Positions 2,924 to 54,214 of a stretch of 64,000 bases of DNA are shown piece by piece. The stretch's first letter is position 1. The number at the start of each line of letters is the position of its first letter. The notes beneath the pieces were generated by a model. The model was not told the origin of the DNA, searched no databases, and was given only the letters and a program-made list of their open reading frames with translations. Source of the DNA: a virus (Duplodnaviria; Heunggongvirae; Uroviricota; Caudoviricetes); IMG/VR virus record IMGVR_UViG_3300015610_000614, positions 35,694 to 99,693 of that record; one strand, given 5' to 3'. Made by a program: the position numbers and the translations under genes.

Positions 2924-2925
2924 TA

Positions 2926-2966
2926 AGAACCCGTATGGTTTATTTGACCATACGGGTTTTTTCTTT
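2926..2966 (+). terminator. Rho-independent terminator after the GIY-YIG gene
   Basis: aacccgtatggt / accatacgggtt stem followed by tttttt. Confidence 0.7.
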
Positions 2967-2987
2967 TGGGCTTTCAATTTTTGGGTG

Positions 2988-3016
2988 TTGACATGTATTA
3001 GGTCCCGTGCTATAAT
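2988..3016 (+). promoter_or_regulatory. Consensus sigma70 promoter (TTGACA, 17-bp spacer, TATAAT)
   Basis: ttgaca at 2988-2993, tataat at 3011-3016, 17-nt spacer. Confidence 0.7.
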
Positions 3017-3044: not shown

Positions 3045-3521
3045 ATGGCAAAGAATACAGGAATGAAGCGTATCCCTGTAAAATGGATACGTGATAGGGC
3101 TAAGAGCGCATATGAAAAGAAGGAAACTTGCCATATCTGCGGAACAAGCCAAGATCTAGAACTACATCATACTCATTCCATAACTCTACTTTTAGAAGAA
3201 TGGATTAAAGTAAAGGGCTACGATATTTCTACGGACGACGGGATAATTGCAGTAAGAGACGAATTTATTGCAGATCACCACTCTGAGTTATACGATCATG
3301 TATATACCCTGTGTAATAAACATCACGTAATGTTACATGCAGTGTATGGAAAAGCTCCAGCTTTAAATTCTGCTAATAAGCAGGTTAAATGGATTGAGAC
3401 TCAAAAAGCAAAGATTAGTGGCGGGCTAGTAGAGGTTCACAACATATTAGACCCTAAAGAAGCTAATAGATTAGTAAAACCTTGTAAAGACGCTTCGTTA
3501 TCTTTTGCGAAGTTCTTATAA
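3045..3521 (+). CDS. HNH homing endonuclease
   Basis: CHICGTSQDLELHHTHS ... CNKHHVMLH (HNH/Zn motifs). The ORF opens at 2916, but the terminator and promoter lie between 2916 and 3045, so I call the start at the ATG at 3045; the exact start is uncertain. Confidence 0.6.
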   Translation: MAKNTGMKRIPVKWIRDRAKSAYEKKETCHICGTSQDLELHHTHSITLLLEEWIKVKGYDISTDDGIIAVRDEFIADHHSELYDHVYTLCNKHHVMLHAVYGKAPALNSANKQVKWIETQKAKISGGLVEVHNILDPKEANRLVKPCKDASLSFAKFL

Positions 3522-3530
3522 GGAGCACTC

Positions 3531-4751
3531 ATGACATGGTATAACCCAGCAACATGGTTCACAAAAGCTAATCCAGCACAAGAATTAATAGCTAGAGGGG
3601 AAGGCCCTCAAATAGCTAGTGACGTACCAATATCTTTTCAAACATCTTTCTATAACCTAGAAACGGTTAATAGAGGCGTCAATATGATAGTTAGCGCATG
3701 TGCTAGCTTAGACTTTGACATTAAAGATATGAAGATGCCGGGCGTAGTACTAGGTACTAGAAAAGCTAGCTTAAATAACTTATTAAATTATAAACCCAAT
3801 CCAAATCAGTCGGCACAGGAATTTAGAACTGCTATATTTACTGATTTAATAATTGAAGGCAATATCTTCATTTATTATGATGGTGTTTATATGTATCACC
3901 TACCTGCGGTAAACGTAAAGGTAATTCCAGATCCTAAAACGTTTGTATCGCACTATTTATATAATGATATAACTCGCTTCTCTCCGAACGAGATTATTCA
4001 TATAAAAGATATAAATACTACCTCAATTTATAGAGGAACCTCAAGGCTACAAGCCGCTGAGCGCAATATACAGATTCTGTATAAAATGCAGTTATTCCAG
4101 GAACAGTTCTTCAAGAATGGGGCCGTTCCTAGTATGATCTTAACTACAGAGAATACTTTAAGCGAGACTGCTAAACAGAAAACTATTCTAGGTTGGTCAA
4201 GACAGTATAATCCAAATTCCGGAGCTAAGAAACCGCTTATCTTAGATAGCGGCATGAAACCTGTAATAGGTATTTCAGCGTCCTTCCAGGAGATGGATTT
4301 TGATACAAGTATCAAGACACATGATACTAAAATTCTAAAAGCGCTTGGTGTACCACCTATTCTTTTAGACGGTGGTAATAACGCAAATATCTCACCTAAT
4401 TTACGTTTATTCTATCTAGAGACAGTAATACCTATTATTACTAAGTTAGTTTCTGGATTTGAACGCTTCTTTGGTTATGATATATCACCGATTACTAGCA
4501 ACGTATCAGCGCTACAGCCGGAATTAAAAGAAATTGCTAGTTATTACACTACTCTGGTCAACGGTGGAGTAATAACACCAAATGAGGCTAGATTAGAGTT
4601 GCGCTATGAAAAAGACACTGATCCAGCTTCTGATAAACTGCGAGTACCTGCTAACATAGCCGGTTCTGCAGCAGACCCAAGTCAGGGTGGGGCTCCTAAA
4701 AAGCCACAAACTGAACCAAAACCCGCAAAGGAGTTTCATGGACAAATATAA
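3531..4751 (+). CDS. Portal protein
   Basis: 406 aa, sits between terminase and protease/capsid, RBS aaggag precedes the ATG. Confidence 0.65.
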   Translation: MTWYNPATWFTKANPAQELIARGEGPQIASDVPISFQTSFYNLETVNRGVNMIVSACASLDFDIKDMKMPGVVLGTRKASLNNLLNYKPNPNQSAQEFRTAIFTDLIIEGNIFIYYDGVYMYHLPAVNVKVIPDPKTFVSHYLYNDITRFSPNEIIHIKDINTTSIYRGTSRLQAAERNIQILYKMQLFQEQFFKNGAVPSMILTTENTLSETAKQKTILGWSRQYNPNSGAKKPLILDSGMKPVIGISASFQEMDFDTSIKTHDTKILKALGVPPILLDGGNNANISPNLRLFYLETVIPIITKLVSGFERFFGYDISPITSNVSALQPELKEIASYYTTLVNGGVITPNEARLELRYEKDTDPASDKLRVPANIAGSAADPSQGGAPKKPQTEPKPAKEFHGQI

Positions 4752-6663
4752 AGTACTTCATTTAGAGAGTGCTTTCAAAGTCAAGGAGCTTCCCACTGCA
4801 GACGAGCAAATTGACTCTATCTACATTGAGGGGTACGCAAGTACCAACGATATAGATAGAGCAGGTGACGTAGTTCCAGCTTCTGTTTGGGAAGCCGGAA
4901 TCCAGAATTACCTAAAGAATCCAATCATACTAGCTCAACATGACCATGACGATCCTATTGGTAGAATGGTAGAGCATAAGATTGATCCTAAAGGTTTATG
5001 GATTAAGGCACGAATTTCGGCAGCTGCCGAAATATTTAATTTAATTAAAGACGGTGTAGTAACCGCCTTTAGTATCGGTTTCAGAGTACTCGATGCAGAA
5101 TATAACTCTGCTACTGAGCTATTTGTAATCAAAGAGTTGGAACTAGTAGAAATCTCAGTGGTTTCAGTTCCATGTAATCAAAACACTATTTTTACTCTTT
5201 CCAAATCTTTCGCAAACGATGCGGATTACAAGGAATTCAAAAAGCAGTTTGAACCAAAAGAAAATTCAGCTAAAGGGCTAGAAGCCACTAGCGGTTCGAA
5301 AGGCATTTCAAAACAAAAAGGATTTAATATGGATGAAACTCAAATCGCCGCTATGCTAGAAAAGGCTGCTAAGGAAGCTACCGAAAAGGCAATTAAGGCT
5401 GTAGAGGAAAAGGCTGCTAAGGAAGCTGCTGAAAAGGCTGCTAAGGAAGCCGAAGAAAAGGCTATCCAAGACCGCATCGAAAAAGCTGTAGCTGCTCGTA
5501 TTGAAGTAGGTACCAGCGGTGCTGAGCGTCTAGTTCAAGATCTAGCTAAGCGTCTAGAAGAAGAAACTGCCGGCATCAAGGATCTAAAGTCAGCCCTAGC
5601 TGAAAAGACCGAAGAAATTAAGCGTATTCAAGAATCGCGTATGGAATTTAGCGACCGTAAGAGCGCTGACGGTATTACCGATAAGGATAAAGAAACCGCT
5701 GTTCTACTAGGTCAACTAATGGGCAAGAGCCTACGTGACACTAAGTTCGGTGCTGGTCTACTAGAAAAAGCAGGCCCTCACGTTGCTAGCGCTACTTGGG
5801 AACTAGAAGTTTCTATGAATATGGAAGCGGAAGTTCGTCGTCGCCTAGTAGTAGCTCCTCTACTACGTAGTGTAGCGATGAAGACCAACGTTATGACTAT
5901 TCCTGTAAACCCTGAGGCTGGCTATGCTACTTGGGTACAGAATGCTCAGTTCGGTAGTACTGCTTCTGCTGGTGCAGCTCAAACTCACCAACTAAAAGAA
6001 ATTACGCTAAATGCGTACAAGGTTGCAACCCTTGAATATATGAACTTTGAAGAAGAGGAAGACTCTCTACTAGTTCTAATGCCGCTAGTTCGTGACGCTA
6101 TGGTTCGTCGTCTAGCTCTTGCTGTAGATAAGGCTTATCTACTAGGTGCTGGTTCTGGTGCTGATCCTGTTAAGGGCCTATCTATTTATGACGCAACTTC
6201 TGTTGTAACTCCTACCAACACTGGTGTTGCTACTGTTGCTAATATGCGCGCCCTACGTAAGGACTTAGGTGCATGGGGTCTAGAACCTTCTGAACTAGCT
6301 TACATCGTTTCTACTGAAGTTTACTATGACCTACTAGACGACACTCTATTCCAGAGTGTCGATAAGGTTGGTGATAAGGCTACCCTACTAACTGGTCAAG
6401 TTGGTTCTATCGGTAATAGCCCGGTTCTAGTATCTTCTGTATTCCCAACTAAGGCTGGCGGTGCAGCTACTGCTTCTACCAACATCGGTGCTATCGCGTT
6501 TGCTGCAGGTAACTTCCTAGCAGGTAACCAACGTGGTCTACGCTTCGATACTCAAGACCTAGTTGAAACTCAACGTAAGGCTCTAGTAGCTTCTCTACGT
6601 ACTGGTCTAGCGCAAGTTACTACCAACCTTGGTGGTGGCGTTTCTACCCTACGTTGGAGCTAA
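4738..6663 (+). CDS. Fused prohead protease (HK97/S78-like), (EKAAKEA)n linker and HK97-fold major capsid protein
   Basis: N-terminus DSIYIEGYASTNDIDRAGDVV...ILAQHDHDDPIGRMVEH...AFSIGFRV is an S78 protease signature. Then the low-complexity repeat EKAAKEATEKAIKAVEEKAAKEAAEKAAKEAEEKA. The C-terminal ~350 aa are MCP-like. RBS aaggag lies 5 nt before the ATG at 4738; the ORF opens at 4687. Confidence 0.65.
   Translation: MDKYKVLHLESAFKVKELPTADEQIDSIYIEGYASTNDIDRAGDVVPASVWEAGIQNYLKNPIILAQHDHDDPIGRMVEHKIDPKGLWIKARISAAAEIFNLIKDGVVTAFSIGFRVLDAEYNSATELFVIKELELVEISVVSVPCNQNTIFTLSKSFANDADYKEFKKQFEPKENSAKGLEATSGSKGISKQKGFNMDETQIAAMLEKAAKEATEKAIKAVEEKAAKEAAEKAAKEAEEKAIQDRIEKAVAARIEVGTSGAERLVQDLAKRLEEETAGIKDLKSALAEKTEEIKRIQESRMEFSDRKSADGITDKDKETAVLLGQLMGKSLRDTKFGAGLLEKAGPHVASATWELEVSMNMEAEVRRRLVVAPLLRSVAMKTNVMTIPVNPEAGYATWVQNAQFGSTASAGAAQTHQLKEITLNAYKVATLEYMNFEEEEDSLLVLMPLVRDAMVRRLALAVDKAYLLGAGSGADPVKGLSIYDATSVVTPTNTGVATVANMRALRKDLGAWGLEPSELAYIVSTEVYYDLLDDTLFQSVDKVGDKATLLTGQVGSIGNSPVLVSSVFPTKAGGAATASTNIGAIAFAAGNFLAGNQRGLRFDTQDLVETQRKALVASLRTGLAQVTTNLGGGVSTLRWS
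5359..5462 (+). repeat. In-frame tandem nucleotide repeat (gaaaaggctgctaaggaagc)x3 encoding the EKAAKEA linker
   Basis: Direct repeats are visible at 5359-5378, 5408-5430 and 5431-5455. Confidence 0.7.
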
Positions 6664-6670
6664 TCTAACA

Positions 6671-6698
6671 CTGATGGGACTTCGGTCCCATCTTTTAT
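6671..6698 (+). terminator. Rho-independent terminator after the capsid gene
   Basis: gatgggac ttcg gtcccatc tttt; a second weaker hairpin (taagcat...gtgctta) follows. Confidence 0.75.
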
Positions 6699-6740
6699 AA
6701 GCATTTATTTAAGTGCTTATAAAAGATATAAGGAACAAAT

Positions 6741-9310: not shown

Positions 9311-10762
9311 ATGGCAATTAACTTAAGTCGTAATACAAAGGTATACTTCACTACTAACGTGAACCAAAATACCGGCGTATTAACAGATGCTACTACTGGC
9401 TTCACTGCGGCAAACCTTATCGAAATCGGTGTTCTAGACGGATATTCATTCTCTCAAGGTACGCAGCAACAAACCATCACCATCTCTGAAGGTGGTAACA
9501 CTCCAGTTCGTGGTCAACGTTCGATCAATACGCAAGTTGATCCTGTTGATTGGAGTTTCTCAACTTATATTCGCCCGTATAATAACGCTTCTACCATTGC
9601 TCCGCAAGAGCGTGTACTATGGAACGCTATGTTAGGTGCAGGTGCAGTAGATACCACGGGTACTACTCCTACCACAATCAGTCGCGCAAATACTACCAGC
9701 CCTACCGCTAGTATCGTTGTAGCCTCTCCTATTACTGCTGTTGTTAATGGTAGTACCGCTCCTTTAGCTGTAAATGACGTGCTAAATATCGGTGGTATCA
9801 TTGCAGCTAACCAATCTACCTGGAACCAGCCTGGTGTAATCACCGCTGTTGCTGGTGCCGGTCCTACTACCTATACTGTAGAGCTATCACGTGCCCCAGC
9901 TGCTGCAGCCGGTACTACTGCTACTGTAGGTTCAGGTAAAGTATACGTAGGTCAATGGGCTACTGGTCCTAGTGGGGGTAACTCTGCTCTTGGTCAGTTC
10001 TCTTATGTGTCTACTATGGCATCTAACAAGAACTTGATGCAACGTTTCGGCCTAATCTTCGTTGTTGACAGCGCAGTTTACGGTATTGATAACTGCTTCA
10101 TCGATCAGGTAAGCGTAGACTTCGGTCTAGATGCTATTGCTACCGCAGCATGGTCTGGTAAGGGTACTCAGCTAAAACAGATGACCGCATCTGGCCTAGC
10201 CTCCGCCCTAGCTGCAACTGCAACTGCTAACCCAAGTTCAGCCCCTTACATTACTAATAAGCTATCTACTATGAAGCTTGATAGTAACATTGGTGGTGGT
10301 GACTACGCCGGCTCTACTGCATACGTTGTAGCTATTACTGGTGGTAATATTACCATTGCTAATAACGTTAACTATCTAGTACCTGCTAACCTTGGTGTTA
10401 TTAACCAAGCTATCGGCTACTTCCCAGGTCAGCGTTCTATTACTGGTAACGTAACTGCTTACCTACGCACTGGCGAAACTAACGGTACCGGCGACGTTCT
10501 AAAGAACCTACTAGCTAACATATCTACTGCTATCGAACCTAAGTTCCGCGTACAGCTAGAAATGGGTGGTGCTTCTAACGCTACTCGCGTTGAGTTCGAA
10601 ATGCCTGGCGTTTCGCTACAAGTACCTACTGTAGAAATTCAAGACGTTGTATCTACTACGATTAACTTTAACGCTCAGGCGTTTAACCCTGATACTCAGA
10701 ACTCTCAGACCTTCGATCTAACTAAGGCTAATGAGTTACTAGTTCGTTTCCTAGCTCCTTAA
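9311..10762 (+). CDS. Major tail (tube) protein, T5 pb6-like in size
   Basis: 483 aa, T/S/G/A-rich with an Ig-like C-terminal region, strong RBS aggagaaatctATG, followed by a terminator. Confidence 0.6.
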   Translation: MAINLSRNTKVYFTTNVNQNTGVLTDATTGFTAANLIEIGVLDGYSFSQGTQQQTITISEGGNTPVRGQRSINTQVDPVDWSFSTYIRPYNNASTIAPQERVLWNAMLGAGAVDTTGTTPTTISRANTTSPTASIVVASPITAVVNGSTAPLAVNDVLNIGGIIAANQSTWNQPGVITAVAGAGPTTYTVELSRAPAAAAGTTATVGSGKVYVGQWATGPSGGNSALGQFSYVSTMASNKNLMQRFGLIFVVDSAVYGIDNCFIDQVSVDFGLDAIATAAWSGKGTQLKQMTASGLASALAATATANPSSAPYITNKLSTMKLDSNIGGGDYAGSTAYVVAITGGNITIANNVNYLVPANLGVINQAIGYFPGQRSITGNVTAYLRTGETNGTGDVLKNLLANISTAIEPKFRVQLEMGGASNATRVEFEMPGVSLQVPTVEIQDVVSTTINFNAQAFNPDTQNSQTFDLTKANELLVRFLAP

Positions 10763-11799: not shown

Positions 11800-14700
11800 A
11801 TGGCAGGAAACACTATTGAAACAAATCTGCGTCTTAATGCTACTGGTATTAAAGAAGCAACCGAAGACGCCAAGCGTCTAAACTCAGAATTATCGCAAGC
11901 CATAAAGAATGCAGGTAAAGCACGTACTGCAGGACAAACCTCGGCCGTATTAAATGCTAATAACAAAGATAGTCGTGCTAATGAAGGCATGGCTTATTCC
12001 ATTGCCCAGGCTGGTGGTGGTTCTGGTGCTGCTGCGCGTGATTTTGGTAAGCAAGCACGTGGTTTAGGTGGTTTAGTTCACTTATACGCAACATTTGCTG
12101 CTAACCTATTCGCTGTAAGTACTGCATTCACTGCGCTACAGCGTGCTATGGATACTTCTAATATGATCAAAGGCCTTGATCAGTTAGGGGCAGCATCCGG
12201 TAGAAATCTAGGTACACTTGCTAGACAAGTACAAGCAGCTTCAGATGGTGCTATTTCATTACGTGATAGTATGGAAGCTGTAGCGAAAGCAAGCGCAGCC
12301 GGTATGTCTACTACACAAATTACTAGAATGACTGAGGCAGCCAAGAAAGCCTCACAAGCTCTAGGTGTAAATATGGCTGACGCTATTAGTCGTATTACTC
12401 GCGGTATTACTAAGCTAGAACCTGAACTACTAGATGAACTAGGCATTTTAGTACGTGTCGATAAGGCTACACAAGATTATGCTAAGACTGTTGGCAAGTC
12501 AGTTGGCTCACTAACACAGTTTGAAAAACAACAAGCATTCGCAAACGCTGTACTAACAGAAGCTGAACAGAAGTTCGGTAGTATTCAGATTGATAGTAAC
12601 CCATATTCCAAACTACTAGCATCATTCCAGGACTTATCTTTCCAAGGTTTAGAGCTTGTAAATAAAGTTCTAGGTCCTATGGTTAACTATCTTGCACAGA
12701 GTCCTGTAGCACTAACTGCAGCTGTTACTGCGGTAGGTGCTGCACTACTAAAACAAGCTATTCCTGCTATTGGCGCATTTCGTGAAAATGCTAATGCTGC
12801 AGCAGAAGAAGCTCGTAAATTAGCGGTGTACAGAAATAAGGCAGCAGAAGCAGCCCATCAGGCAGAGCTTAAAGCTGTAGCACAACGTGCTGAAGAACTA
12901 GCCGACAGAGAGCTAATGGCTAAGGAAGCAGCGATTGCTAAGCTTGAAAAGCAAAAAGGTGCTCGTAAAGTAGGTAAAACATATGCCCCTATTCTTGAGA
13001 AGAGTGCAGATGAAGTTACCGACGCAGAATTAGCTAAACTACGCAAGGAAGCAGCTATTCAACAGAAGCGTGGTAATGTAGAAGCGGCTAAGGGTTATAA
13101 TGACTTAGCAGCTGCTATAGAGACTTCTAGAACTGCAGAATTAAACTATATTCAAGCTGTAGACAAGAATAAGAAAGCTCTTGCTGACCGCAATAGTTAT
13201 TTCTCTATATCCGGTCAATTGGCTCGTCAGGCCGAGGCAGCTAACCAATCTGCTATTCAAAAGACTATTAAAACACTTGCATCTGAAACTGTATATACAG
13301 AAGGTGTTCGTGCTGCATGGAAGAAGTTAAATACTGAAATCGCAGCAGCCAGATCAGGTCCTAGAATGGTAGATTTTGGCGATGGTCCTGAGCAAGTAAA
13401 GAAGATGACAGCTATGCAAGCTGGCTGGACTAGAATTTCTGGTGCAGTCGGTATTGCTACTGCTGCAGTATCAGCTTTTGCTGGAGCAATAGGTACAGCC
13501 TTTATGGTTGTTGGAGCCTTTGTAGCTGTATTTGAAATACTAGACTCAGTTTTTGGAAAGAATAGTAAAGAACTAGAGATATTTACTAGAAATACTGATG
13601 CCTTAAACGAATCTGCTGCTAATTTAGATAGAACATTGGATGCTATCTACAAGAAAAAACCAGGAGAAGGGTTTAGCGTAGATAGTATAAATGCTATGGC
13701 TACTGCCATGCAGGATCTGTACGAGAATGCGGATAAACTGGCTGATTCTTTTGCTAAAGTTAACTCCAAAGCGTCTGGCTGGGATAAGTTTGTAGATACT
13801 ATGTGGGATTTAGTGGGTAGAGGCTCAGTTGATAAACTAAGAGATTCTATCAGTAAAACTATAACAAGTGCCATTAAGTCAGCTCCGGTAGGTGAAGCCA
13901 GAGACGAATTTAAGAGAACTATAGCAGCTATATATAATGTAGATCCAGAAGATACTAAAGCTATCCAGAAAGTATTTGATAATATCGGTAGTTCAGAAGA
14001 TGCATCTAAATTAGCTAATTCTACTAGCGCGGCTCTTAAGCAGTTAGCCTTAGAACTTAACAATACTGCATCAGTAGCTAAGACTGCTGATGAAGGATTT
14101 AAGAAGATAAATGAATCTTATAGAAACCTAGCTAACTCACTAAGAGATCAAAGCCCATTAACACTACTTGGACAGAATCTAGTAACAGAATCTATTAATA
14201 TCGCTAAGGCTCTAAACGATCCTAAGTTGGCGATAACTGAGCTAGTTAATCTAGTTAAAGATGAGTCTAAACTACGTCTATTACCTGTTGATACTGTTAA
14301 GCAGTTGAAATCTGCACAATTTCAGATTGAACAACTAGCAGTATCTACAGAAGAATTCCAGAAGCAACTAAAAGATGCCGAGGAAGCAAGAGCTAAAATT
14401 GCTAGTATCAATCCGCTAAAACAAAGCGGCCGTGGTCTACAAAGAAATCCTGAATATGATGCTCTTAAAGAGATCATCGCTAAGGGTGATAAAGCTAAAA
14501 TTCAGTTAGATATTAATACTTCTAAATTAACTGAACTTCGTCAAACACTATCCGGTGCTATGGACGAATCATTTAAGCAGGGTGTACGTATTATTACCGA
14601 TAAATTCGTAGAGGCTTCAACCAAAGCGCAGTTAGCGGTATTAAGCTCGATCACTGCCAGGTTCTCAGGTCCTGGTAAATCTGACTTAGAAACCAGTATA

Positions 14701-17700
14701 AAGAATAAAGAATTAGCAATACAAGAACGCAATATTGATACGATGTTCAGCTTAGCAACTAGTTTAGATAACTTAGCTATTCTTATGGAAAAAGAACAGC
14801 TAACTAAGGAGCTAGCCAGTACTACTAGCGAAAGCCGTATATCCGCTATTTCATCTAGATTAGGTGAGTTAGTAGAAATGAGTGGCTTTACAGCTAAGCG
14901 TTTTAAAGCTACAGCGGCTGATTTCGACCAGTTAAGTGCTAATGCCAAGAAAGGTCTATCTAATTATATTACCACACTATTCGGGGCAAAAGCTCAATTA
15001 GCAGGTATAGCCGGTGAACGTACTAAAAATACTTTAGCTGGACAGGCTGGTACTCGTGCAGAAAACTTTGGGGAAGATCAAAAGCGTAAGCAATTAGAGA
15101 TAGATATTAATGCTCTTACTGTTGAACGTTTACGTAACCTAAATAGTATTAGTGGTAATCAAAGTCTATATTTACTATCGCTAAAGCAATCTGCAGAAAT
15201 CGAAGCAGAAAGTTTAGCTAATAGTAAGGCAAGAGCTGAGGCCGAGTTCAAGATAAATCAACTAGTAATAGAAAAAGACAATTTAGCTAAGCAAGGTGCT
15301 GATGCACAACAATTAGCTAATGCTCAAAAGTCTGTAGATGCAGCACAAAGAGAGCTAGATACCATAACTAAAACTCAAGCTATTAGAGCCGATAATTCGG
15401 CAGTAGTTAGAAGACAAGAAACAATAGCTGCTATAGCTGCTCTTGAAGAAAAAGAACTAGCTTTCGCCAGAGAGCAGTTTAGTTTAGATTCAGAAAGAGC
15501 ACAGATATCTCTAGATATTGAACAACAACGTCTAGGTATGTCTTCACAGTATGGTCTAATGCTAGGTTCACAGCAAATTGCAGAACAAGCTAAGTTAGAT
15601 ATTCTTAATGCAGAGCTACAGGCAAATCAACAGATCACTGCTGCATTAAATGAGCAAGCTAGCGTTAAACTTAAAAACGCTACTGATAGAGATAAGGAAA
15701 TGGCCGGTGCTACTACCTTAGATCAAATCATTGAGATTGCTCAAAGATACGATGCACTAGACTCAAAAATTGAGCAAAGTACTACTAAGCGTATAGATAA
15801 CACTAAGCTAATGCTAGAAGGCCGTAAAGACTACATTAAGAGTATGTCAGAAGAACAGAAACTAATGGCCGGTATTAGTGAAGCTACAGAAAACCTTGTT
15901 ACTGTATTTGGGGACCTTGGTGATGCTATCGGTGGTTCATTGAAGTCACTACTAACATTCCAGGCCGGTTCTAAGAAGCTAGCAGATGCCCAGGCTGATA
16001 AGCTAAAGAAATTTGCTAAAGGTAGTGACGAATACAATGAACAAGAAAAAGAAAATATCCAGGAACGTACAGACTATGAATTAAAATCAGCACAAGGAAT
16101 TGCTGGTGCTACTAAAAAGATGTTTAATGAAAAAACTGTTGCATATAAAGCATTTGCAGCAGTTGAAAAAGCTATTGCAATTACTAGACTAGTAATGGGT
16201 GCTAAACAAATGGCACAAGATGCGGCAGAAACTGCTTCAGCCATTGCTAAGTCAGTTGCAAGAGCCTCAACTGATGGGGTTGCAGCAGTTGTAAAAACCC
16301 TTGCAAGCTTACCATTCCCAGCAAACGTGGCGGCCGGTGCCGCAGTTGCTGCTATAGTAGCTGGCTTGTTATCTAGTATCGGTGGCTCTGGTCCTAATAT
16401 GTCGTCCGTAGGTATGACTGCGGAAGATAGACAAAGTACACAAGGTACAGGTACTTCTTGGCAAAATGGTCAGAAGGTAGAAAATGGTGGGGGCGTATTC
16501 GGCGACTCTAGTGCTAAATCTGAATCAATTGCACACTCATTAGATATTATTAGTAGTACTTCAGTAGAAGGTCTACAAAATGATAATAGAATGATTGACG
16601 CATTGTTAGGAATTAGAGACGCAGTATCTGGTACTGCTAAAGTACTATATTCTGTTGCAGGTCTTCGCACTAAATCTATCTTTAATACCGAGGAAGGAAC
16701 TAAGACTAGTGGTATTAGTGGTCTATTTGGTAAAACTACTACCAAAGAAATCATTGATGCAGGTATTCGTCTAAAAGGGTCATTCAATGATCTAGCTAAG
16801 GGCGTATCTGGTGCTATTCAACAGTATGAAACGGTAAAACAAACCAAAACTAATAGCGGTTTCCTAGGTATCGGCAAGAGTACTAGTACTAGTATCTCTG
16901 AGACGTATACTGCTGCTGATAAGGCTATTTCTGATAGTATTACAAAGATATTTACTAATGCTACCAATACTTTTGTACAGGTAGGTTCTAAGCTTGGTAT
17001 GAGTATGGAAGACGTACTAAGCAAGCTAGGTAACGTAAATATTGACCAACTAGCTTCGTTAAGAGGACTAAGCGGGGAAGCGCTACAGAAAGAATTCGAA
17101 TCAGTTATCAGTAATATCCTAGATACTGCAAGTAGTACACTATTCGAAAGTCTATCGAAATACCAGCAATTCGGCGAAGGCATGTTAGAAACAGTAATTC
17201 GTGTTACTGATGCTAACGATAAGATTAAGCTATCGCTAACCAGTATTGGTAAGAAGTACACCGAACTATCGTTTGATGTAACTGAAGCACTATCTAAAGC
17301 ATCTGGTGGACTAGATAAGTTCATGGAGCAGGTGGCTAGCTTTAAGGATAACTTCTTAACTGATGCAGAAAAGCTAAAGCCAATAGCCGAAGACGTAAGC
17401 AACACTCTAGCTAAGCTAGGTTTAAGTAATATTCAAACTAGAGAGCAGTTTAAGAACTTAGTAAATAGCATAGACTTAACTACTGACGCAGGTCAGAAGA
17501 TGTTTATTGCTTTGATGAACATACAAGATGCGTTTGCTCAAGTAACCGCACGTCATCAAGAACTACTAGATGAATATGTATCTCTAGAAGAGAAATTAGC
17601 TGATACTCTTGGCGGTAACAATGCGCTTAAAGAGGCTTTAAACAAGAAAGAATTAGCTTCCATGAATGATATTGAAAGAGCTCAATATCTAAAGAATAGA

Positions 17701-19719
17701 CAAATGGAAGCTGAGATTGATACTGTTAAACAGTATAACGATTTAACTTCTCAATTAAATCAATATACTAAAACATCCGTTGAACTACGTACTGAAGAAC
17801 GAAACAAGCTAAGCGATATTAATAAAGCACTGTATGATGTAGTTAATGCGTATAAGGATCTTAAGGATGCTAACGCAGCCATAGCGACAGCTATGTCTAC
17901 TTTAGAAAGTGTTACTAATAGTTTCGCTTCCGGGCTAGCATCAGCCGCTGCCGCTGTAGAAGCAGCAGACCAGGCAATAGCTAGAAATAATGCGTCAATT
18001 GTCGGAGCTGTTACTACTGCTCAAAAGGGTATAGTTGACAAATATCGTTCGGCCTCTACTACTCTACAGAATGCTAAGAAGGCTACCACTGCTGCCTTAG
18101 CCGGTATAACCACTGGTTATTTAAATGCGCAAAAAGCAGTAGCAAGTGCTAGCAGTGCTGTAGCAAGTGCGAATAAGAAGGCTAAGGACGAGCTTCGCTC
18201 GCTAGCAGATAATATCATGACATTCCTAGACGATCTTCGTACTGGGGCTCTTGGTATCCTGTCTGGCGGTGATAAGTTTGATGTACTTAAGAATAAGTTT
18301 GCTGCAACCGCGGCAGCAGCGCAAGCAGGCGACAAAACAGCCGCAGCAGCACTGCCTGACTTAGCTCAGAAAGTACTAGAACTTGCACAAAGCAACTCTT
18401 CTACTAGCTTGGAGTACGCTAAAGTATACGGCGAAGTAACGAGTACTTTAAACGACGTATCTAATAAAATCTACGACGCGGTAGGGCCATCTACTCCTGA
18501 CGTGGATCTAGAACAGTCACAGGCTCTAGCTGATTTAGCAGCAGCGCAAGCTGAACTAGCTAAGTGGCAGGATGCTGTCAATGTTTCAGGGGCTTCTAGT
18601 ACTGAAGCTACAATAGATCTATTAAAAGAGTGGAAGGATGCCAAAGCTTCTGAAGTAGAAGCTTCCGAGATGTTTGATAAGTGGACTAAGCTTGCTGAAC
18701 AGGCAGGTTTAACCATGAAGGATCTAATTGAAGATCCTATGCAAGACTATATCGATGCACGTAAAGCTTACTTAGACTCTATTGATGCACTAAATAAATG
18801 GAACGACGCTCTAGCTAAGTCAGGTATTTCAGTTAAGCCTGAAGATACCGCTATTGATACATATCTAAAAGCAATTGAAGATAGAAATCAAAAAGTTAAA
18901 GACCTAGAAGCATGGCAAAAAGCAATTAAAGATAACGGAATAGATGTTAGCAAAGCTACTACTGGTGTACAAAGCACCATAGATAAGTATGTTGCGGATT
19001 GGAAGAAGGCCAACGCAGATCTAGCTGAAGCGCAAGCCAAAGCTGCTGCTGCTCAGGCAATTATTTCTGATATGACTGCATCAAAACTAGATGCTATTAA
19101 ATCAGCTGTAGAAGCTTCTGCAAATGCCATTGCTAAATCAATTCTAGATAGCTTAAATAAACCTAAGGAAGTAATACCTCCTCCAAATCCTGCTGCTAAT
19201 CCTACTAGCCCAAGTACTGGCGGACCTACTACGAAAATACCCGAAACTCCTAGTATACCTAAATCTGCTGCTTATGTAATGAGCTCAGATGATATGATGA
19301 GTCTAAACTCAGCAATATTAATGGATCAATACAAGGGTGACGGTGGTTATAGTAGTCGTCTGTTACTAAGTCGTTGGGGAGTTGATAGTCTAACTAAGTT
19401 GGAAGACTTTAAGAAGACTAATGCAACCCTATTAGGTAGTTTGTTGAATCCTATACCTGATATGGCATTGCCTTCGTTCGACGTAGGTACTAATTATGTT
19501 CCGCAAGATATGATTGCTCAAATCCATAAGGGTGAGGCAATTATACCTGCTAGATATAATAATCAAGGTAATGAAGATTTGGTTAATGAGGTAAGAGCAC
19601 TAAGGGCTACAGTAGTACAACTACTACAAACAACCAATAGTGTAGAAACTAATACTAGAAAGTCGAAAGATGTTCTAGTTCGTGTAACTCAAGATGGTGA
19701 AGGAATGGTTACTGCATAA
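11800..19719 (+). CDS. Tape measure protein (2639 aa)
   Basis: Very long Ala/Lys/Glu-rich coiled-coil protein with a hydrophobic segment (AVGIATAAVSAFAGAIGTAFMVVGAFVAV), after the chaperones. RBS agagg. Confidence 0.8.
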   Translation: MAGNTIETNLRLNATGIKEATEDAKRLNSELSQAIKNAGKARTAGQTSAVLNANNKDSRANEGMAYSIAQAGGGSGAAARDFGKQARGLGGLVHLYATFAANLFAVSTAFTALQRAMDTSNMIKGLDQLGAASGRNLGTLARQVQAASDGAISLRDSMEAVAKASAAGMSTTQITRMTEAAKKASQALGVNMADAISRITRGITKLEPELLDELGILVRVDKATQDYAKTVGKSVGSLTQFEKQQAFANAVLTEAEQKFGSIQIDSNPYSKLLASFQDLSFQGLELVNKVLGPMVNYLAQSPVALTAAVTAVGAALLKQAIPAIGAFRENANAAAEEARKLAVYRNKAAEAAHQAELKAVAQRAEELADRELMAKEAAIAKLEKQKGARKVGKTYAPILEKSADEVTDAELAKLRKEAAIQQKRGNVEAAKGYNDLAAAIETSRTAELNYIQAVDKNKKALADRNSYFSISGQLARQAEAANQSAIQKTIKTLASETVYTEGVRAAWKKLNTEIAAARSGPRMVDFGDGPEQVKKMTAMQAGWTRISGAVGIATAAVSAFAGAIGTAFMVVGAFVAVFEILDSVFGKNSKELEIFTRNTDALNESAANLDRTLDAIYKKKPGEGFSVDSINAMATAMQDLYENADKLADSFAKVNSKASGWDKFVDTMWDLVGRGSVDKLRDSISKTITSAIKSAPVGEARDEFKRTIAAIYNVDPEDTKAIQKVFDNIGSSEDASKLANSTSAALKQLALELNNTASVAKTADEGFKKINESYRNLANSLRDQSPLTLLGQNLVTESINIAKALNDPKLAITELVNLVKDESKLRLLPVDTVKQLKSAQFQIEQLAVSTEEFQKQLKDAEEARAKIASINPLKQSGRGLQRNPEYDALKEIIAKGDKAKIQLDINTSKLTELRQTLSGAMDESFKQGVRIITDKFVEASTKAQLAVLSSITARFSGPGKSDLETSIKNKELAIQERNIDTMFSLATSLDNLAILMEKEQLTKELASTTSESRISAISSRLGELVEMSGFTAKRFKATAADFDQLSANAKKGLSNYITTLFGAKAQLAGIAGERTKNTLAGQAGTRAENFGEDQKRKQLEIDINALTVERLRNLNSISGNQSLYLLSLKQSAEIEAESLANSKARAEAEFKINQLVIEKDNLAKQGADAQQLANAQKSVDAAQRELDTITKTQAIRADNSAVVRRQETIAAIAALEEKELAFAREQFSLDSERAQISLDIEQQRLGMSSQYGLMLGSQQIAEQAKLDILNAELQANQQITAALNEQASVKLKNATDRDKEMAGATTLDQIIEIAQRYDALDSKIEQSTTKRIDNTKLMLEGRKDYIKSMSEEQKLMAGISEATENLVTVFGDLGDAIGGSLKSLLTFQAGSKKLADAQADKLKKFAKGSDEYNEQEKENIQERTDYELKSAQGIAGATKKMFNEKTVAYKAFAAVEKAIAITRLVMGAKQMAQDAAETASAIAKSVARASTDGVAAVVKTLASLPFPANVAAGAAVAAIVAGLLSSIGGSGPNMSSVGMTAEDRQSTQGTGTSWQNGQKVENGGGVFGDSSAKSESIAHSLDIISSTSVEGLQNDNRMIDALLGIRDAVSGTAKVLYSVAGLRTKSIFNTEEGTKTSGISGLFGKTTTKEIIDAGIRLKGSFNDLAKGVSGAIQQYETVKQTKTNSGFLGIGKSTSTSISETYTAADKAISDSITKIFTNATNTFVQVGSKLGMSMEDVLSKLGNVNIDQLASLRGLSGEALQKEFESVISNILDTASSTLFESLSKYQQFGEGMLETVIRVTDANDKIKLSLTSIGKKYTELSFDVTEALSKASGGLDKFMEQVASFKDNFLTDAEKLKPIAEDVSNTLAKLGLSNIQTREQFKNLVNSIDLTTDAGQKMFIALMNIQDAFAQVTARHQELLDEYVSLEEKLADTLGGNNALKEALNKKELASMNDIERAQYLKNRQMEAEIDTVKQYNDLTSQLNQYTKTSVELRTEERNKLSDINKALYDVVNAYKDLKDANAAIATAMSTLESVTNSFASGLASAAAAVEAADQAIARNNASIVGAVTTAQKGIVDKYRSASTTLQNAKKATTAALAGITTGYLNAQKAVASASSAVASANKKAKDELRSLADNIMTFLDDLRTGALGILSGGDKFDVLKNKFAATAAAAQAGDKTAAAALPDLAQKVLELAQSNSSTSLEYAKVYGEVTSTLNDVSNKIYDAVGPSTPDVDLEQSQALADLAAAQAELAKWQDAVNVSGASSTEATIDLLKEWKDAKASEVEASEMFDKWTKLAEQAGLTMKDLIEDPMQDYIDARKAYLDSIDALNKWNDALAKSGISVKPEDTAIDTYLKAIEDRNQKVKDLEAWQKAIKDNGIDVSKATTGVQSTIDKYVADWKKANADLAEAQAKAAAAQAIISDMTASKLDAIKSAVEASANAIAKSILDSLNKPKEVIPPPNPAANPTSPSTGGPTTKIPETPSIPKSAAYVMSSDDMMSLNSAILMDQYKGDGGYSSRLLLSRWGVDSLTKLEDFKKTNATLLGSLLNPIPDMALPSFDVGTNYVPQDMIAQIHKGEAIIPARYNNQGNEDLVNEVRALRATVVQLLQTTNSVETNTRKSKDVLVRVTQDGEGMVTA

Positions 19720-34432: not shown

Positions 34433-35827
34433 CTTAACGCAAGTCACGTTTTTAGGGTGTGGTAGTCCTAGTTCGTCAGCCATACCAATAGCAGCGCCAG
34501 TAGCAGTACGCTTCATGCGCTCATAGTCATACCCTGTAAGGTCAGGACGCTTAGCTACACCAGTAATACCTACACCGCATAGACGTAGGAAATAGTTATT
34601 AATATGCCACGCTTCTTGTAGGATACCATCCTTAAGATTTACACAAGTTTGACGGTAGTTAGCTCGGGCAGCTAGACGCAGAGCGTCAAATAGCCCGGCC
34701 ATATTACCCTTGAACTTACCTAGATCAACTTCCGTAAGATTACAGAAAGACTTATTACCTAGTAGAATCTCTACGCAAGGATTACACCCCTTGAACCACG
34801 GTGCTCGACGTAGCGCTTCTTCTGCGTTAATAAATCCAGGCTCAGAACCCCCGGCTTCTTCCATTAGCTTGAAAATATCTTCAAGTTCTTTGCGAAGAGG
34901 CTTAGTACGGAAAACTAGACTATTATTAGATTGGGTACGATGAGCATTATTATGCATCCACCAATCCTTTTTAGCTACTGCGAATTCTTGCCATTCAGGC
35001 TCGCCATATTCAAATAGAGCAATTTCTGCACTACGACGGCTCGACAAGATGGTACCTAGCCAGTTAACAATATCTAGAATATCCATGCGAGTTAGTAGAG
35101 AATCAGCCCTACCGTTTAGGATATTTGCAATTGCTACGTATGCAACGCTAATGGCCTCATCACCAGAGCTAATCCAGCCATAGCCCTTTAGACGCTCACC
35201 CGCAGGACGCAGTTGACTGAAGTCCAGTACTAGCTTTTTAGCAGGATACTTACCAGCCATTAGCTTACCGATCGACTTAGCCCACGCTTCAGCAGAATCG
35301 CCTACACTAATAGTCCATACGCCAGTTTCAGGATCGAAGGTCTCTACGTTATTTTCGTTACCGCCCTTTTCAGTACGAGTAGAACGAATTACTTCAATAT
35401 TCTTGATTGATTTAGAGAAACCACTAAGAGTACCTACGATGGGGCGGAAACCTACGCCGCAGCCCTGTAGTAGTAGCCAAAGAATATCTACAATATCGTA
35501 AACAGTTTCGGCATTTGTGAAACTGCAATTAAACTGAGAAGCTTCGCGAGTTTTAGCAACTGAGGTACCGCCAAGCCAAAGAGTGCGACCGCTCATAGAG
35601 ATTTTACGATCTAGCATTAGACGTTCTAGATCGTACAGCTCTGCATATTCAGTGTCTAGTAGTTCGCGACCTACTGCACGCTCCCACAGCCATTGCTGGT
35701 GATTGATAACGCGCTCAACAGTGGCTTCCCATGTTTCAAATACTGTACCCTGATCGTTCAATGGACGATTATAGGTACGACGAGTAATAACTTGTGCACG
35801 AGTAGATGGTTTATATTCGATTGTCAT
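34430..35827 (-). CDS. Ribonucleotide reductase large subunit, N-terminal exon
   Basis: GCNPCVEIL matches the RNR active-site N-x-C-x-E motif (E. coli SNLCLEI); an upstream Cys sits in FNCSFTN. Confidence 0.5.
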   Translation of the reverse strand: MTIEYKPSTRAQVITRRTYNRPLNDQGTVFETWEATVERVINHQQWLWERAVGRELLDTEYAELYDLERLMLDRKISMSGRTLWLGGTSVAKTREASQFNCSFTNAETVYDIVDILWLLLQGCGVGFRPIVGTLSGFSKSIKNIEVIRSTRTEKGGNENNVETFDPETGVWTISVGDSAEAWAKSIGKLMAGKYPAKKLVLDFSQLRPAGERLKGYGWISSGDEAISVAYVAIANILNGRADSLLTRMDILDIVNWLGTILSSRRSAEIALFEYGEPEWQEFAVAKKDWWMHNNAHRTQSNNSLVFRTKPLRKELEDIFKLMEEAGGSEPGFINAEEALRRAPWFKGCNPCVEILLGNKSFCNLTEVDLGKFKGNMAGLFDALRLAARANYRQTCVNLKDGILQEAWHINNYFLRLCGVGITGVAKRPDLTGYDYERMKRTATGAAIGMADELGLPHPKNVTCVK

Positions 35828-53458: not shown

Positions 53459-54214
53459 TTAGGCAGCAGCCTTGCTTGCACGACCTGCGGCCTTTTCAGC
53501 CTTAGCAACGCCGTCATAATCAGCAGCCTTTAGGCCACGACGGGTTAGGAGAGTCTTAATACCGCGTTCGGTCTTACCAACAGCAGCAGCAATTTGCTCT
53601 ACAGTCATAGTAGAAAGCTTATCGCCTAGAACATCTACCGGATCAGCTTCGGCAGTAGCGTGCGATTCCTTTTGCTTAGGAATCGCAGTAATTTGACCAG
53701 AACGGCTTAGGCTTAGGGCCTTACCACGTACGCTAGCGATGGTCTTATTAAGAGCGGTAGCAATGTCTTCGATGAAAGCGCCCTTAGCTGCCATATCAAC
53801 GAACTTAGCTTCTTCATCAGCGCTATAAGTACGAGCAACTTCAACCTTTTCAGCAGGTAGAACGTGGCTGGTTAGTTCGAGAGCTAGAGCCTTACCTTGA
53901 ACTTGTTTAGGAGAGAACTTACCGCCTTGGAAGGCTTCAGCAATTTCCTTATAAGTCTTGGTGCCACTTACGCTTTCAATGTAAGCCTTAAGAGCGTTAC
54001 CTTCGTCTTCGGTGAAGGTAGCAGTAGCTTCCTTAGCTAGTGAAGCTACAGTGAAGTCTAGCTGACGTAGCTTAGCAGCTACAGAACGTGCGCTACGGCC
54101 AAGGGTCTCAGCAGCTGCATTAACAGTAGCAGCAGATACGGGAGATTCGCTACCGGCTAGGTCACGTAGTTGAGCAACAGCTTCGTCGGACCAGTTCTTC
54201 TTAGTTTCAGTCAT
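53459..54214 (-). CDS. DNA-binding-like protein with four tandem HTH-like repeats
   Basis: About 27-aa repeats: ..AAETLGRSARSVAAKLRQL, ..IAEAFQGGKFSPKQVQGKALAL, ..IATALNKTIASVRGKALSL, ..IAAAVGKTERGIKTLLTRRGL. Confidence 0.4.
   Translation of the reverse strand: MTETKKNWSDEAVAQLRDLAGSESPVSAATVNAAAETLGRSARSVAAKLRQLDFTVASLAKEATATFTEDEGNALKAYIESVSGTKTYKEIAEAFQGGKFSPKQVQGKALALELTSHVLPAEKVEVARTYSADEEAKFVDMAAKGAFIEDIATALNKTIASVRGKALSLSRSGQITAIPKQKESHATAEADPVDVLGDKLSTMTVEQIAAAVGKTERGIKTLLTRRGLKAADYDGVAKAEKAAGRASKAAA

Follow-up and report, generated by a model that had tools for sequence, protein, structure and literature searches.

The locus analysed here lies in a 64,000-nucleotide stretch of a tailed-virus genome (Caudoviricetes; positions 35,694 to 99,693 of IMG/VR virus record IMGVR_UViG_3300015610_000614), the whole of which is referred to as the window. 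At positions 4738-6663 of the plus strand, an uninterrupted open reading frame (ORF) of 641 amino acids plus stop (start ATG 4738, stop codon 6661-6663) encodes, in this order, a prohead protease, a linker, a delta (scaffolding) domain and a major capsid protein. According to a preliminary description, made from the sequence alone, an S78 prohead protease and an HK97-fold capsid protein are fused in one ORF, and our analysis bore this out, with exact coordinates, both Pfam domains and no stop between them. Within this ORF, an in-frame ATG at 5329 is preceded by a ribosome-binding signal of its own. We consider it likely, from conservation and codon usage, that the ORF is a nested in-frame gene pair that yields a rare protease-capsid long form and an abundant capsid short form. 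Megablast revealed no near-identical cultured phage; the closest cultured relatives were T5-like phages of Vibrio, Aeromonas and Klebsiella (34-38% identity), and by its sequence the window is a distant relative of the T5-like phages (Demerecviridae).

The S78 prohead serine protease domain occupies residues 1 to ~165 (4738..5232). Pfam family Peptidase_S78 (PF04586) matched residues 25-156 with an E-value of 1.8e-17 (64.4 bits, compared with a curated cutoff of 21), and among the PHROGs families phrog_80 (head maturation protease) matched the N-terminal part with an E-value of 3e-39. The protease signature quoted previously was found in the translation as IEGYAS..DRAGDV..LAQHDHDDPIG. His68 (codon 4939-4941) and Ser112 (codon 5071-5073) align with His65 and Ser114 of HK97 gp4, the catalytic residues of that enzyme (MEROPS S78). 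Neither residue varies among 121 close and 93 deep family sequences, and the His/Ser dyad is intact. The S78 domain is predicted to carry out proteolysis of the capsid precursor inside the prohead. When the protease part alone was used for a sequence search of the PDB, nothing significant was found. As judged from the alignment and the end-to-end join, residues 1-197 correspond to a complete free-standing T5-like protease, including its C-terminal tail. A 20-nucleotide perfect palindrome, ATTTCGGCAGCTGCCGAAAT, was also observed at 5014-5033, where the DNA encodes RISAAAEIF of the protease. Although flagged as terminator-like, it probably arose by chance or as a by-product of the conserved AAAE peptide.

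Residues ~166-197 (5233..5328) form a variable linker, which was delimited by alignment, conservation and the predicted local distance difference test (pLDDT) score. It corresponds to the C-terminal tail of free-standing T5-like proteases and is poorly conserved in the alignment of the close family. In an AlphaFold2 model the linker is spanned by a stretch (residues 172-222) with pLDDT below 50; this model, built with a 46-sequence family alignment, was poor (pLDDT 44, predicted TM-score [pTM] 0.29) and was used for coarse secondary structure only. Among diverged fused ORFs the length of the linker ranges from 26 to 64 residues, and the reading frame is kept in every case. Because the length varies yet always in frame, the sequences suggest that the covalent protease-capsid link itself is maintained by selection. 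The linker contains the motif S-A-K179-G-L-E (5266-5283; residues 177-182), in which A178 is found in 121/121, K179 in 119/121 and G180 in 118/121 close sequences. This motif is clade-specific: free-standing T5-like proteases lack it, and in the deep fused set it is not conserved. K179-G180 may be a candidate cleavage site that frees the protease from the delta domain (K|G, to be compared with K344|A/T-G below). An EKAAKEA repeat had initially been taken for the linker, but its position is C-terminal to Met198, in the part homologous to the T5 pb8 delta domain.

The delta domain (residues 198-344; 5329..5769) was recognized by alignment with T5 pb8, residues 31-159 of which match residues 212 to ~344 of the fusion protein, and by long helices, which AlphaFold2 predicted with low confidence over residues 200-343. 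The repeat occupies residues 208-243, within the first of these helices. Tandem Repeats Finder located it in the DNA at 5358-5463 (plus strand; period 24 nucleotides, 4.4 copies, score 114; also period 48, score 142). The visible DNA tandem repeat of the preliminary description was thus recovered, but its unit is of eight residues, (EKAAKEAx)n, and not of seven. The last 297 residues (345-641; 5770..6660) would constitute the mature HK97-fold capsid protein. Phage_capsid (PF05065) matched residues 362-510 (E 6.7e-9, 36 bits compared with a cutoff of 24.2), the C-terminal part matched major head protein families of PHROGs, and residues 212-626 aligned with T5-family capsid proteins in the PDB (8ho3, E 7e-43; 5tjt, E 3e-41). 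5TJT is mature T5 pb8 (299 of 458 residues), and it begins opposite residue ~340 of the fusion protein. In T5 and DT57C, a delta domain of ~160 residues is cleaved off during maturation. Lys344 (codon 5767-5769) is present in 121/121 sequences of the close set and 81/93 of the deep set, is followed by Ala or Thr and then Gly, and lies within 1-5 aligned positions of T5 K159/A160. These alignments suggest that maturation cleavage probably takes place after the invariant Lys344.

The fusion was then followed across relatives. A search of 5.8 billion proteins yielded 2,996 matches at E <= 1e-10; the best 120 clusters were examined, and all 120 (64-98% identity) were 634-663 residues long and contained both Pfam domains. 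Among 80 IMG/VR loci, every complete one, two of them at only 34% identity, had a single continuous ORF. When 1.84 billion cluster representatives (clustered at 50% identity) were searched with HMMER without filters, ~100 end-to-end fused proteins of 600-690 residues were recovered, down to ~30% identity. Related contigs were 98-112 kb in size, consistent with a T5-sized capsid. The preliminary description had raised the prospect of a programmed frameshift or stop that would give a separate protease; there is no stop, and no slippery heptamer was found near the junction, the sole one in the ORF (AAACCCT) being located at residue 390. Given that the same continuous ORF occurs in hundreds of independent contigs from several data sources, and that no slippery heptamer lies near the junction, we attach a practically negligible probability to an assembly or sequencing artefact, or to a programmed frameshift or stop that normally parts the two proteins. 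A sequencing error or frameshift between the domains was rejected on the continuous ORF in relatives and the lack of a slippery site there, and a programmed -1 frameshift near the junction on the latter. Enlarged versions were also encountered. In some relatives the protease domain is preceded by 250-500 additional residues, and others (787-1006 residues) contain long inserts between the protease and capsid parts; lengths of 928, 1000, 989 and 889 residues were listed for such proteins, along with ORFs of 859 and 1033 residues. These enlarged relatives may be triple fusions or carry extra cargo domains.

The nested in-frame ORF that begins at Met198 (5329..6663, plus strand) would encode a protein of 444 residues comprising the delta domain and the capsid protein, and it was delimited by alignment, conservation and a change-point in codon bias. 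The sequence AAGGA at 5318..5322, 6 nucleotides before ATG 5329, constitutes an internal Shine-Dalgarno (SD) motif that is conserved in relatives. In the alignment, Met198 falls opposite Met1 of free-standing T5-like capsid proteins, and it is invariant (121/121) amid the poorly conserved linker. In 47/47 non-redundant close loci, the ATG was accompanied by AAGGA, GAGGA or AGGAG upstream; such a motif preceded only 4/687 (0.6%) of the other in-frame ATGs of the same genes. The codon phase of the SD differs by lineage, as in KGFNM (AAA GGA TTT AAT ATG), KEIGM (AAG GAA ATT GGA ATG) and KEWNM, and it is thus the nucleotide signal, not the peptide, that is conserved. An alignment-free scan for an SD with a start codon was also applied to 73 further diverged fused ORFs (31-42% identity to a distant representative). 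Such a site was found in the linker of 68/73, and 61 sites fell in one 20-residue bin, 40-60 residues downstream of the protease motif S[VIA]V[ST][VI]P[AC]N, compared with a background of 0-9 per bin elsewhere. The internal SD is unpaired in the predicted RNA fold; no special RNA structure was detected at the internal start (z -0.47), and a small hairpin over the upstream start was only weakly unusual (z -1.8). The junction CAGGATTAATAATG of phage vB_ValS_X1 resembles the window junction AAGGATTTAATATG with its TAA stop removed. The N-terminal peptide of the short form is predicted to be MDETQIAAMLEK, and the residue before it, Asn197, is a non-tryptic site. By these sequence criteria, a putative in-frame internal initiation site with its own ribosome-binding signal is present at 5329.

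Codon usage was compared on the two sides of this site. From a single translation unit, uniform selection for translational efficiency would be expected, and the fusion ORF is not uniform. The effective number of codons (Nc) was 45.7 before Met198, which is typical of genes in the window, and 32.3 after it, which is the joint most biased value in the 64 kb. The C-terminal and N-terminal parts also differed in preferred codons (CTA for Leu, 42/46 versus 5/13; CGT or CGC for Arg, 22/22 versus 1/4; AAG for Lys, 27/31 versus 6/19, respectively), while the GC content of third codon positions (GC3) was unchanged across the step. When preferred codons were defined from four unrelated biased genes, the best change-point was located at codon 201 (t = 7.8). 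The step was present in 47/47 relatives in a size-matched comparison (mean Nc 47.6 versus 36.0). In 100 non-redundant fused loci, for which only the last 250 codons served as reference, the change-points clustered on the internal start, with 38% lying within 10 codons of it (6% expected if uniform) and 57% within 20. In T5-like phages and HK97, where protease and capsid protein are translated from separate genes, the two genes displayed the same split in Nc (56.5/33.1, 57.4/31.2 and 53.6/40.0), and in these phages the SD of the capsid gene lies within the 3' end of the protease gene. Taken together, the internal SD, ATG 5329 and the codon-bias step indicate that the capsid protein is also made alone.

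With regard to codon usage elsewhere in the window, the highly expressed genes strongly favour CTA for Leu, CGT for Arg and AAG for Lys, and ARAGORN found no tRNA genes in the 64 kb. This pattern suggests that tRNA-Leu(UAG) is abundant in the host or among phage tRNAs encoded elsewhere in the genome. An ORF of 251 residues on the minus strand (53459-54214) had an Nc of 32.4, as extreme as that of the capsid part. It yielded only weak, sub-threshold matches (Sigma70_r4_2 and winged helix-turn-helix) and may encode a very highly expressed small DNA-binding or sigma-like protein.

The following mechanism is proposed for the nested gene pair. Initiation at ATG 4738 would produce the 641-residue long form, comprising the S78 protease, a flexible linker, the delta domain and the HK97-fold capsid protein. 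Initiation at the internal SD and ATG 5329 would produce, in much larger amounts, the 444-residue short form, an ordinary capsid precursor of the T5 pb8 type. Because both forms share the delta-capsid part, they would be expected to co-assemble into the prohead shell; because delta domains face inward, the long-form subunits would bring the protease into the prohead interior by a covalent tether. Such a tether would replace the non-covalent C-terminal targeting of the free-standing HK97 and T5 proteases. After assembly, the protease would cut off the delta domains, probably after Lys344, and would thereby be released as well, leaving uniform mature capsid subunits of ~297 residues. The dose of protease would be set by the ratio of the two initiation sites. 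The sequences establish the fusion, its two domains, the catalytic residues and the conservation of the internal start signal and of the codon-bias step; the use of the internal start, the relative amounts of the two forms, their co-assembly and the place of cleavage are inferred. The preliminary description held that the fusion implied cis-autoprocessing and that protease copies would equal capsid protein copies unless translation was regulated. The fusion does not imply cis-autoprocessing. As for copy number, it was the caveat that proved central, in view of the conserved internal SD and ATG and the codon step; because the capsid protein is indicated to be made alone too, protease copies need not equal capsid copies.

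Several observations weigh against this interpretation of the locus. The evidence for internal initiation consists of conservation and codon usage; moreover, the upstream start also has a strong SD (AAGGAG), and the ratio of the two forms cannot be estimated. A strict SD and start codon was lacking from the linker in 5/73 distant loci. In the deep alignment, only 56/93 sequences have Met in the junction column (20 have V, L or I), although the linker aligns poorly there. The distribution of codon-bias change-points has a tail at +120 to +190 codons. The structural model, as noted above, is poor (pLDDT 44), and the assignment of the cleavage site to Lys344 draws on its nearness to T5 K159/A160, with gap ambiguities of one and of four residues. 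An alternative candidate is K330-S331, 14 residues before K344. K330-S331-L332 (5725-5733) aligns with K103-S104-L105 of HK97 gp5 in a weak BLASTP match of the delta domain (E 0.02), and K103/S104 is the site of HK97 gp5 maturation cleavage.

Other explanations must be weighed against the nested gene pair. If only the full-length fusion were made, the protease would be present 1:1 with the capsid protein and would remove itself and the delta domain in cis or in trans, and the internal SD and ATG would be a relic. The ORF is indeed continuous in all relatives and its upstream start has a strong SD; a relic would also be expected just after a fusion event, and the window junction is similar to that of vB_ValS_X1 minus its TAA stop. 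However, a relic would decay, and the ATG and SD persist down to ~30% identity amid an unalignable linker, with the SD shifting codon phase; nor can a single translation unit explain why, in 47/47 relatives, codon bias changes at the internal ATG. We therefore judge this explanation to be improbable. It would also be conceivable that the short form arises mainly from a separate, shorter mRNA with a promoter inside the protease part, as for herpesvirus UL26.5. Between 4738 and 5329, no convincing sigma-70 promoter was found (the best site, at 4940-4967, matched 9/12 positions, and counts were not above those of shuffled sequences), although late promoters of phages may deviate from the sigma-70 consensus used in the scan. 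HSV-1 (herpes simplex virus 1) and ostreid herpesvirus 1 (OsHV-1) do express their nested scaffold from separate transcripts, but an internal SD suffices in bacteria. A separate mRNA, to which we likewise assign a low probability, would still use the same internal SD and ATG, and only the level of control would change.

It has further been proposed that SD-like sequences inside genes pause ribosomes, a proposal that is disputed. The internal motif, which lies at a domain boundary, could on this basis be a signal for translational pausing or co-translational folding, with Met198 kept for structure and no second product made. This would not explain why the start codon is invariant at a fixed SD spacing, why Met198 is homologous to Met1 of free-standing capsid proteins or why codon bias shows a step, and we regard it as very unlikely.

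The closest sequence relatives of the fusion are the T5-like phages (34-38% identity for cultured members; T5-family capsid in the PDB, E 7e-43). In agreement with the earlier statement on T5 and HK97, gene comparison showed protease and major capsid protein to be separate genes in T5-like phages and HK97. In T5 (pb11/pb8) and Demerecviridae, as in the window, the gene order is portal, protease, capsid and head completion. The protease of these phages removes a delta domain of ~150-160 residues, as is predicted for the window protein. Matches of the window protein in cultured T5-like phages always fell on two adjacent genes, protease followed by capsid. In these phages, however, the protease gene ends 2-13 nucleotides before the capsid ATG and in another frame, whereas in the window the stop is gone, a single ORF results and the capsid start is retained within it. 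HK97 gp4 and gp5 share with the window protein the protease family, the aligned His and Ser and an N-terminal delta domain in gp5, which is only weakly similar (E 0.02). They differ in that genes 4 and 5 are separate, 2 nucleotides apart, and sequence similarity is low. The HK97 protease is targeted non-covalently.

Nested in-frame protease/scaffold genes are established in lambda (C/Nu3), HSV-1 (UL26/UL26.5) and HFTV1 (gp17/gp17.5); for the last of these, ribosome profiling and mass spectrometry were employed, and the C-terminal domain was 7.8x more abundant. The long form in these systems combines an N-terminal protease with a C-terminal scaffold, an arrangement matched in the window by the protease at residues 1-165 and the delta domain at residues 198-344. 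In all three, an in-frame internal start yields the C-terminal part alone in excess; for the window, the corresponding start signal is recognized by sequence only. There are also differences. The nested product of lambda, HSV-1 and HFTV1 is a free scaffolding protein, with a separate gene for the capsid protein, whereas the scaffold of the window protein is the capsid's own delta domain, and the predicted nested product is the whole capsid precursor (to 6663). Unlike its counterparts, the window long form would itself be a shell subunit. The proteases are of different types as well, that of lambda C being S49-type and that of herpesviruses assemblin.

The fusion of protease and capsid protein as such is already known, and it is less unusual than the preliminary description assumed, given that it is annotated in several databases and in cultured actinophages. 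In PHROGs, the phrog_617 profile matches the window protein over residues 24-540, and phrog_4523 is a fusion family named 'major head and protease protein'. Relatives bear the JGI product name 'HK97 family phage prohead protease/HK97 family phage major capsid protein'. Fused protease-capsid genes have been described for Rhodococcus phage RRH1 and for the AM, AU and AN clusters of Arthrobacter phages, and more than 80 cultured actinophage records, including Gordonia phages, carry the name 'major capsid and protease fusion protein'. In the searchable literature, the actinophage fusions appear only in genome descriptions. Like the window ORF, they are single ORFs in which the prohead protease precedes the capsid protein, but they belong to small (~15 kb) siphoviruses of Actinobacteria and to a different lineage. 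Arthrobacter phage KylieMac gp8 matched the window protein only over 47 residues around the catalytic Ser (E 0.003), with no similarity in the capsid part, and the SallySpecial fusion contains a different capsid Pfam family, PF25209.

Actinophage fusions were also inspected for internal starts. In KylieMac gp8, the S78 domain (PF04586) lies at residues 54-154 and an in-frame SD with ATG at Met160; in Adaia gp5, the same domain lies at 23-153 and the SD with ATG at Met162. Similar in-frame sites were present in GMA5 Orf6 (Met265), RRH1 gp07 (Met274) and BlueFeather gp5 (Met204). In Idaho gp5, no in-frame SD with ATG was found after the protease domain. From this sample, which is small and was scanned with a permissive SD pattern, nested capsid starts may be general to protease-capsid fusions, including those of unrelated actinophages. 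Two other fusions came to attention. The 'prohead protease fusion protein' of a CBASS preprint was set aside; it is a protease-scaffold fusion of the T1-like phage Bas13 and not a capsid fusion. The Salmonella phage Gifsy-2 has a tripartite capsid gene (Effantin et al. 2010, Virology 402:355). This gene reportedly comprises a protease, a central scaffold-like domain and a capsid protein; its protease is said to be ClpP-like rather than S78, and the capsid to be T=7 and lambda-like and to bear a decoration trimer.

The searchable literature, outside which several key papers lie, made no mention of internal initiation in fused protease-capsid genes, so that an earlier description is possible. 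What appears to be new is the nested capsid start inside a protease-capsid fusion, a combination that was not found in that literature. On a wider view, protease-capsid fusions could be nested genes rather than 1:1 polyproteins, in which strong selection has preserved the start of the capsid protein. They would then represent a general, so far undescribed strategy in thousands of uncultured T5-like phages and apparently also in unrelated actinophages, in which a minority of subunits carry the protease as a covalent N-terminal passenger, two competing starts set its dose and the tether replaces a targeting peptide; we place the chances of this generalization at about even. Fused genes are common in databases and in classroom-isolated phages, and a T=13 shell built 1:1 from the fusion would hold ~775 proteases. 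The number of proteases in HK97 and T5 proheads is far smaller. A conserved internal start would resolve this stoichiometry problem. If true, the proposal would extend the nested protease-scaffold scheme of lambda and herpesviruses to HK97-type capsids without a separate scaffold. It would tie delta-domain assembly of the HK97/T5 type to the nesting of protease and scaffold genes seen in lambda, Mu, herpesviruses and archaeal tailed viruses, and would support the view that the morphogenetic module is expressed by a common scheme across Duplodnaviria. For annotation, it would mean that gene callers list a single gene for what are probably two products, the short product being the true major capsid precursor.

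The genes around the fusion ORF were examined as well. Upstream lies the portal protein gene (3531..4751, plus strand; PF04860, E 7e-55), the 3' end of which shares 14 nucleotides with the start of the fusion ORF. The SD of the long form, AAGGAG, is located at 4728..4733, 4 nucleotides upstream of ATG 4738, and TAAGGAGT-type motifs equivalent to it occur in relatives. A GTG at 4687 could lengthen the fusion ORF; relatives begin at the ATG instead. Directly 3' of the capsid ORF, a terminator-like hairpin (GATGGGAC-TTCG-GTCCCATC) with a T-run occupies 6673..6700 on the plus strand, in the same position as the annotated putative terminator after gene 5 of HK97. Another strong terminator-like hairpin, with a 16-bp stem, lies between the terminase and portal genes (region 2925-3016); a promoter that matches the sigma-70 consensus perfectly (TTGACA-17-TATAAT with TG) follows on its 3' side in the same region. 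The portal and capsid genes may form a transcription unit of their own that ends at the hairpin at 6673-6692. An ORF of 158 residues at 3045-3521 contains a CxxC...HH (HNH-like) pattern and had no Pfam match at 1e-3. Farther downstream, a putative major tail protein gene (9311-10762; Nc 37.9) was without a Pfam match, and it is followed by an ORF of 2,639 residues (11800-19719, plus strand), which presumably encodes a very long protein of the tape-measure type.

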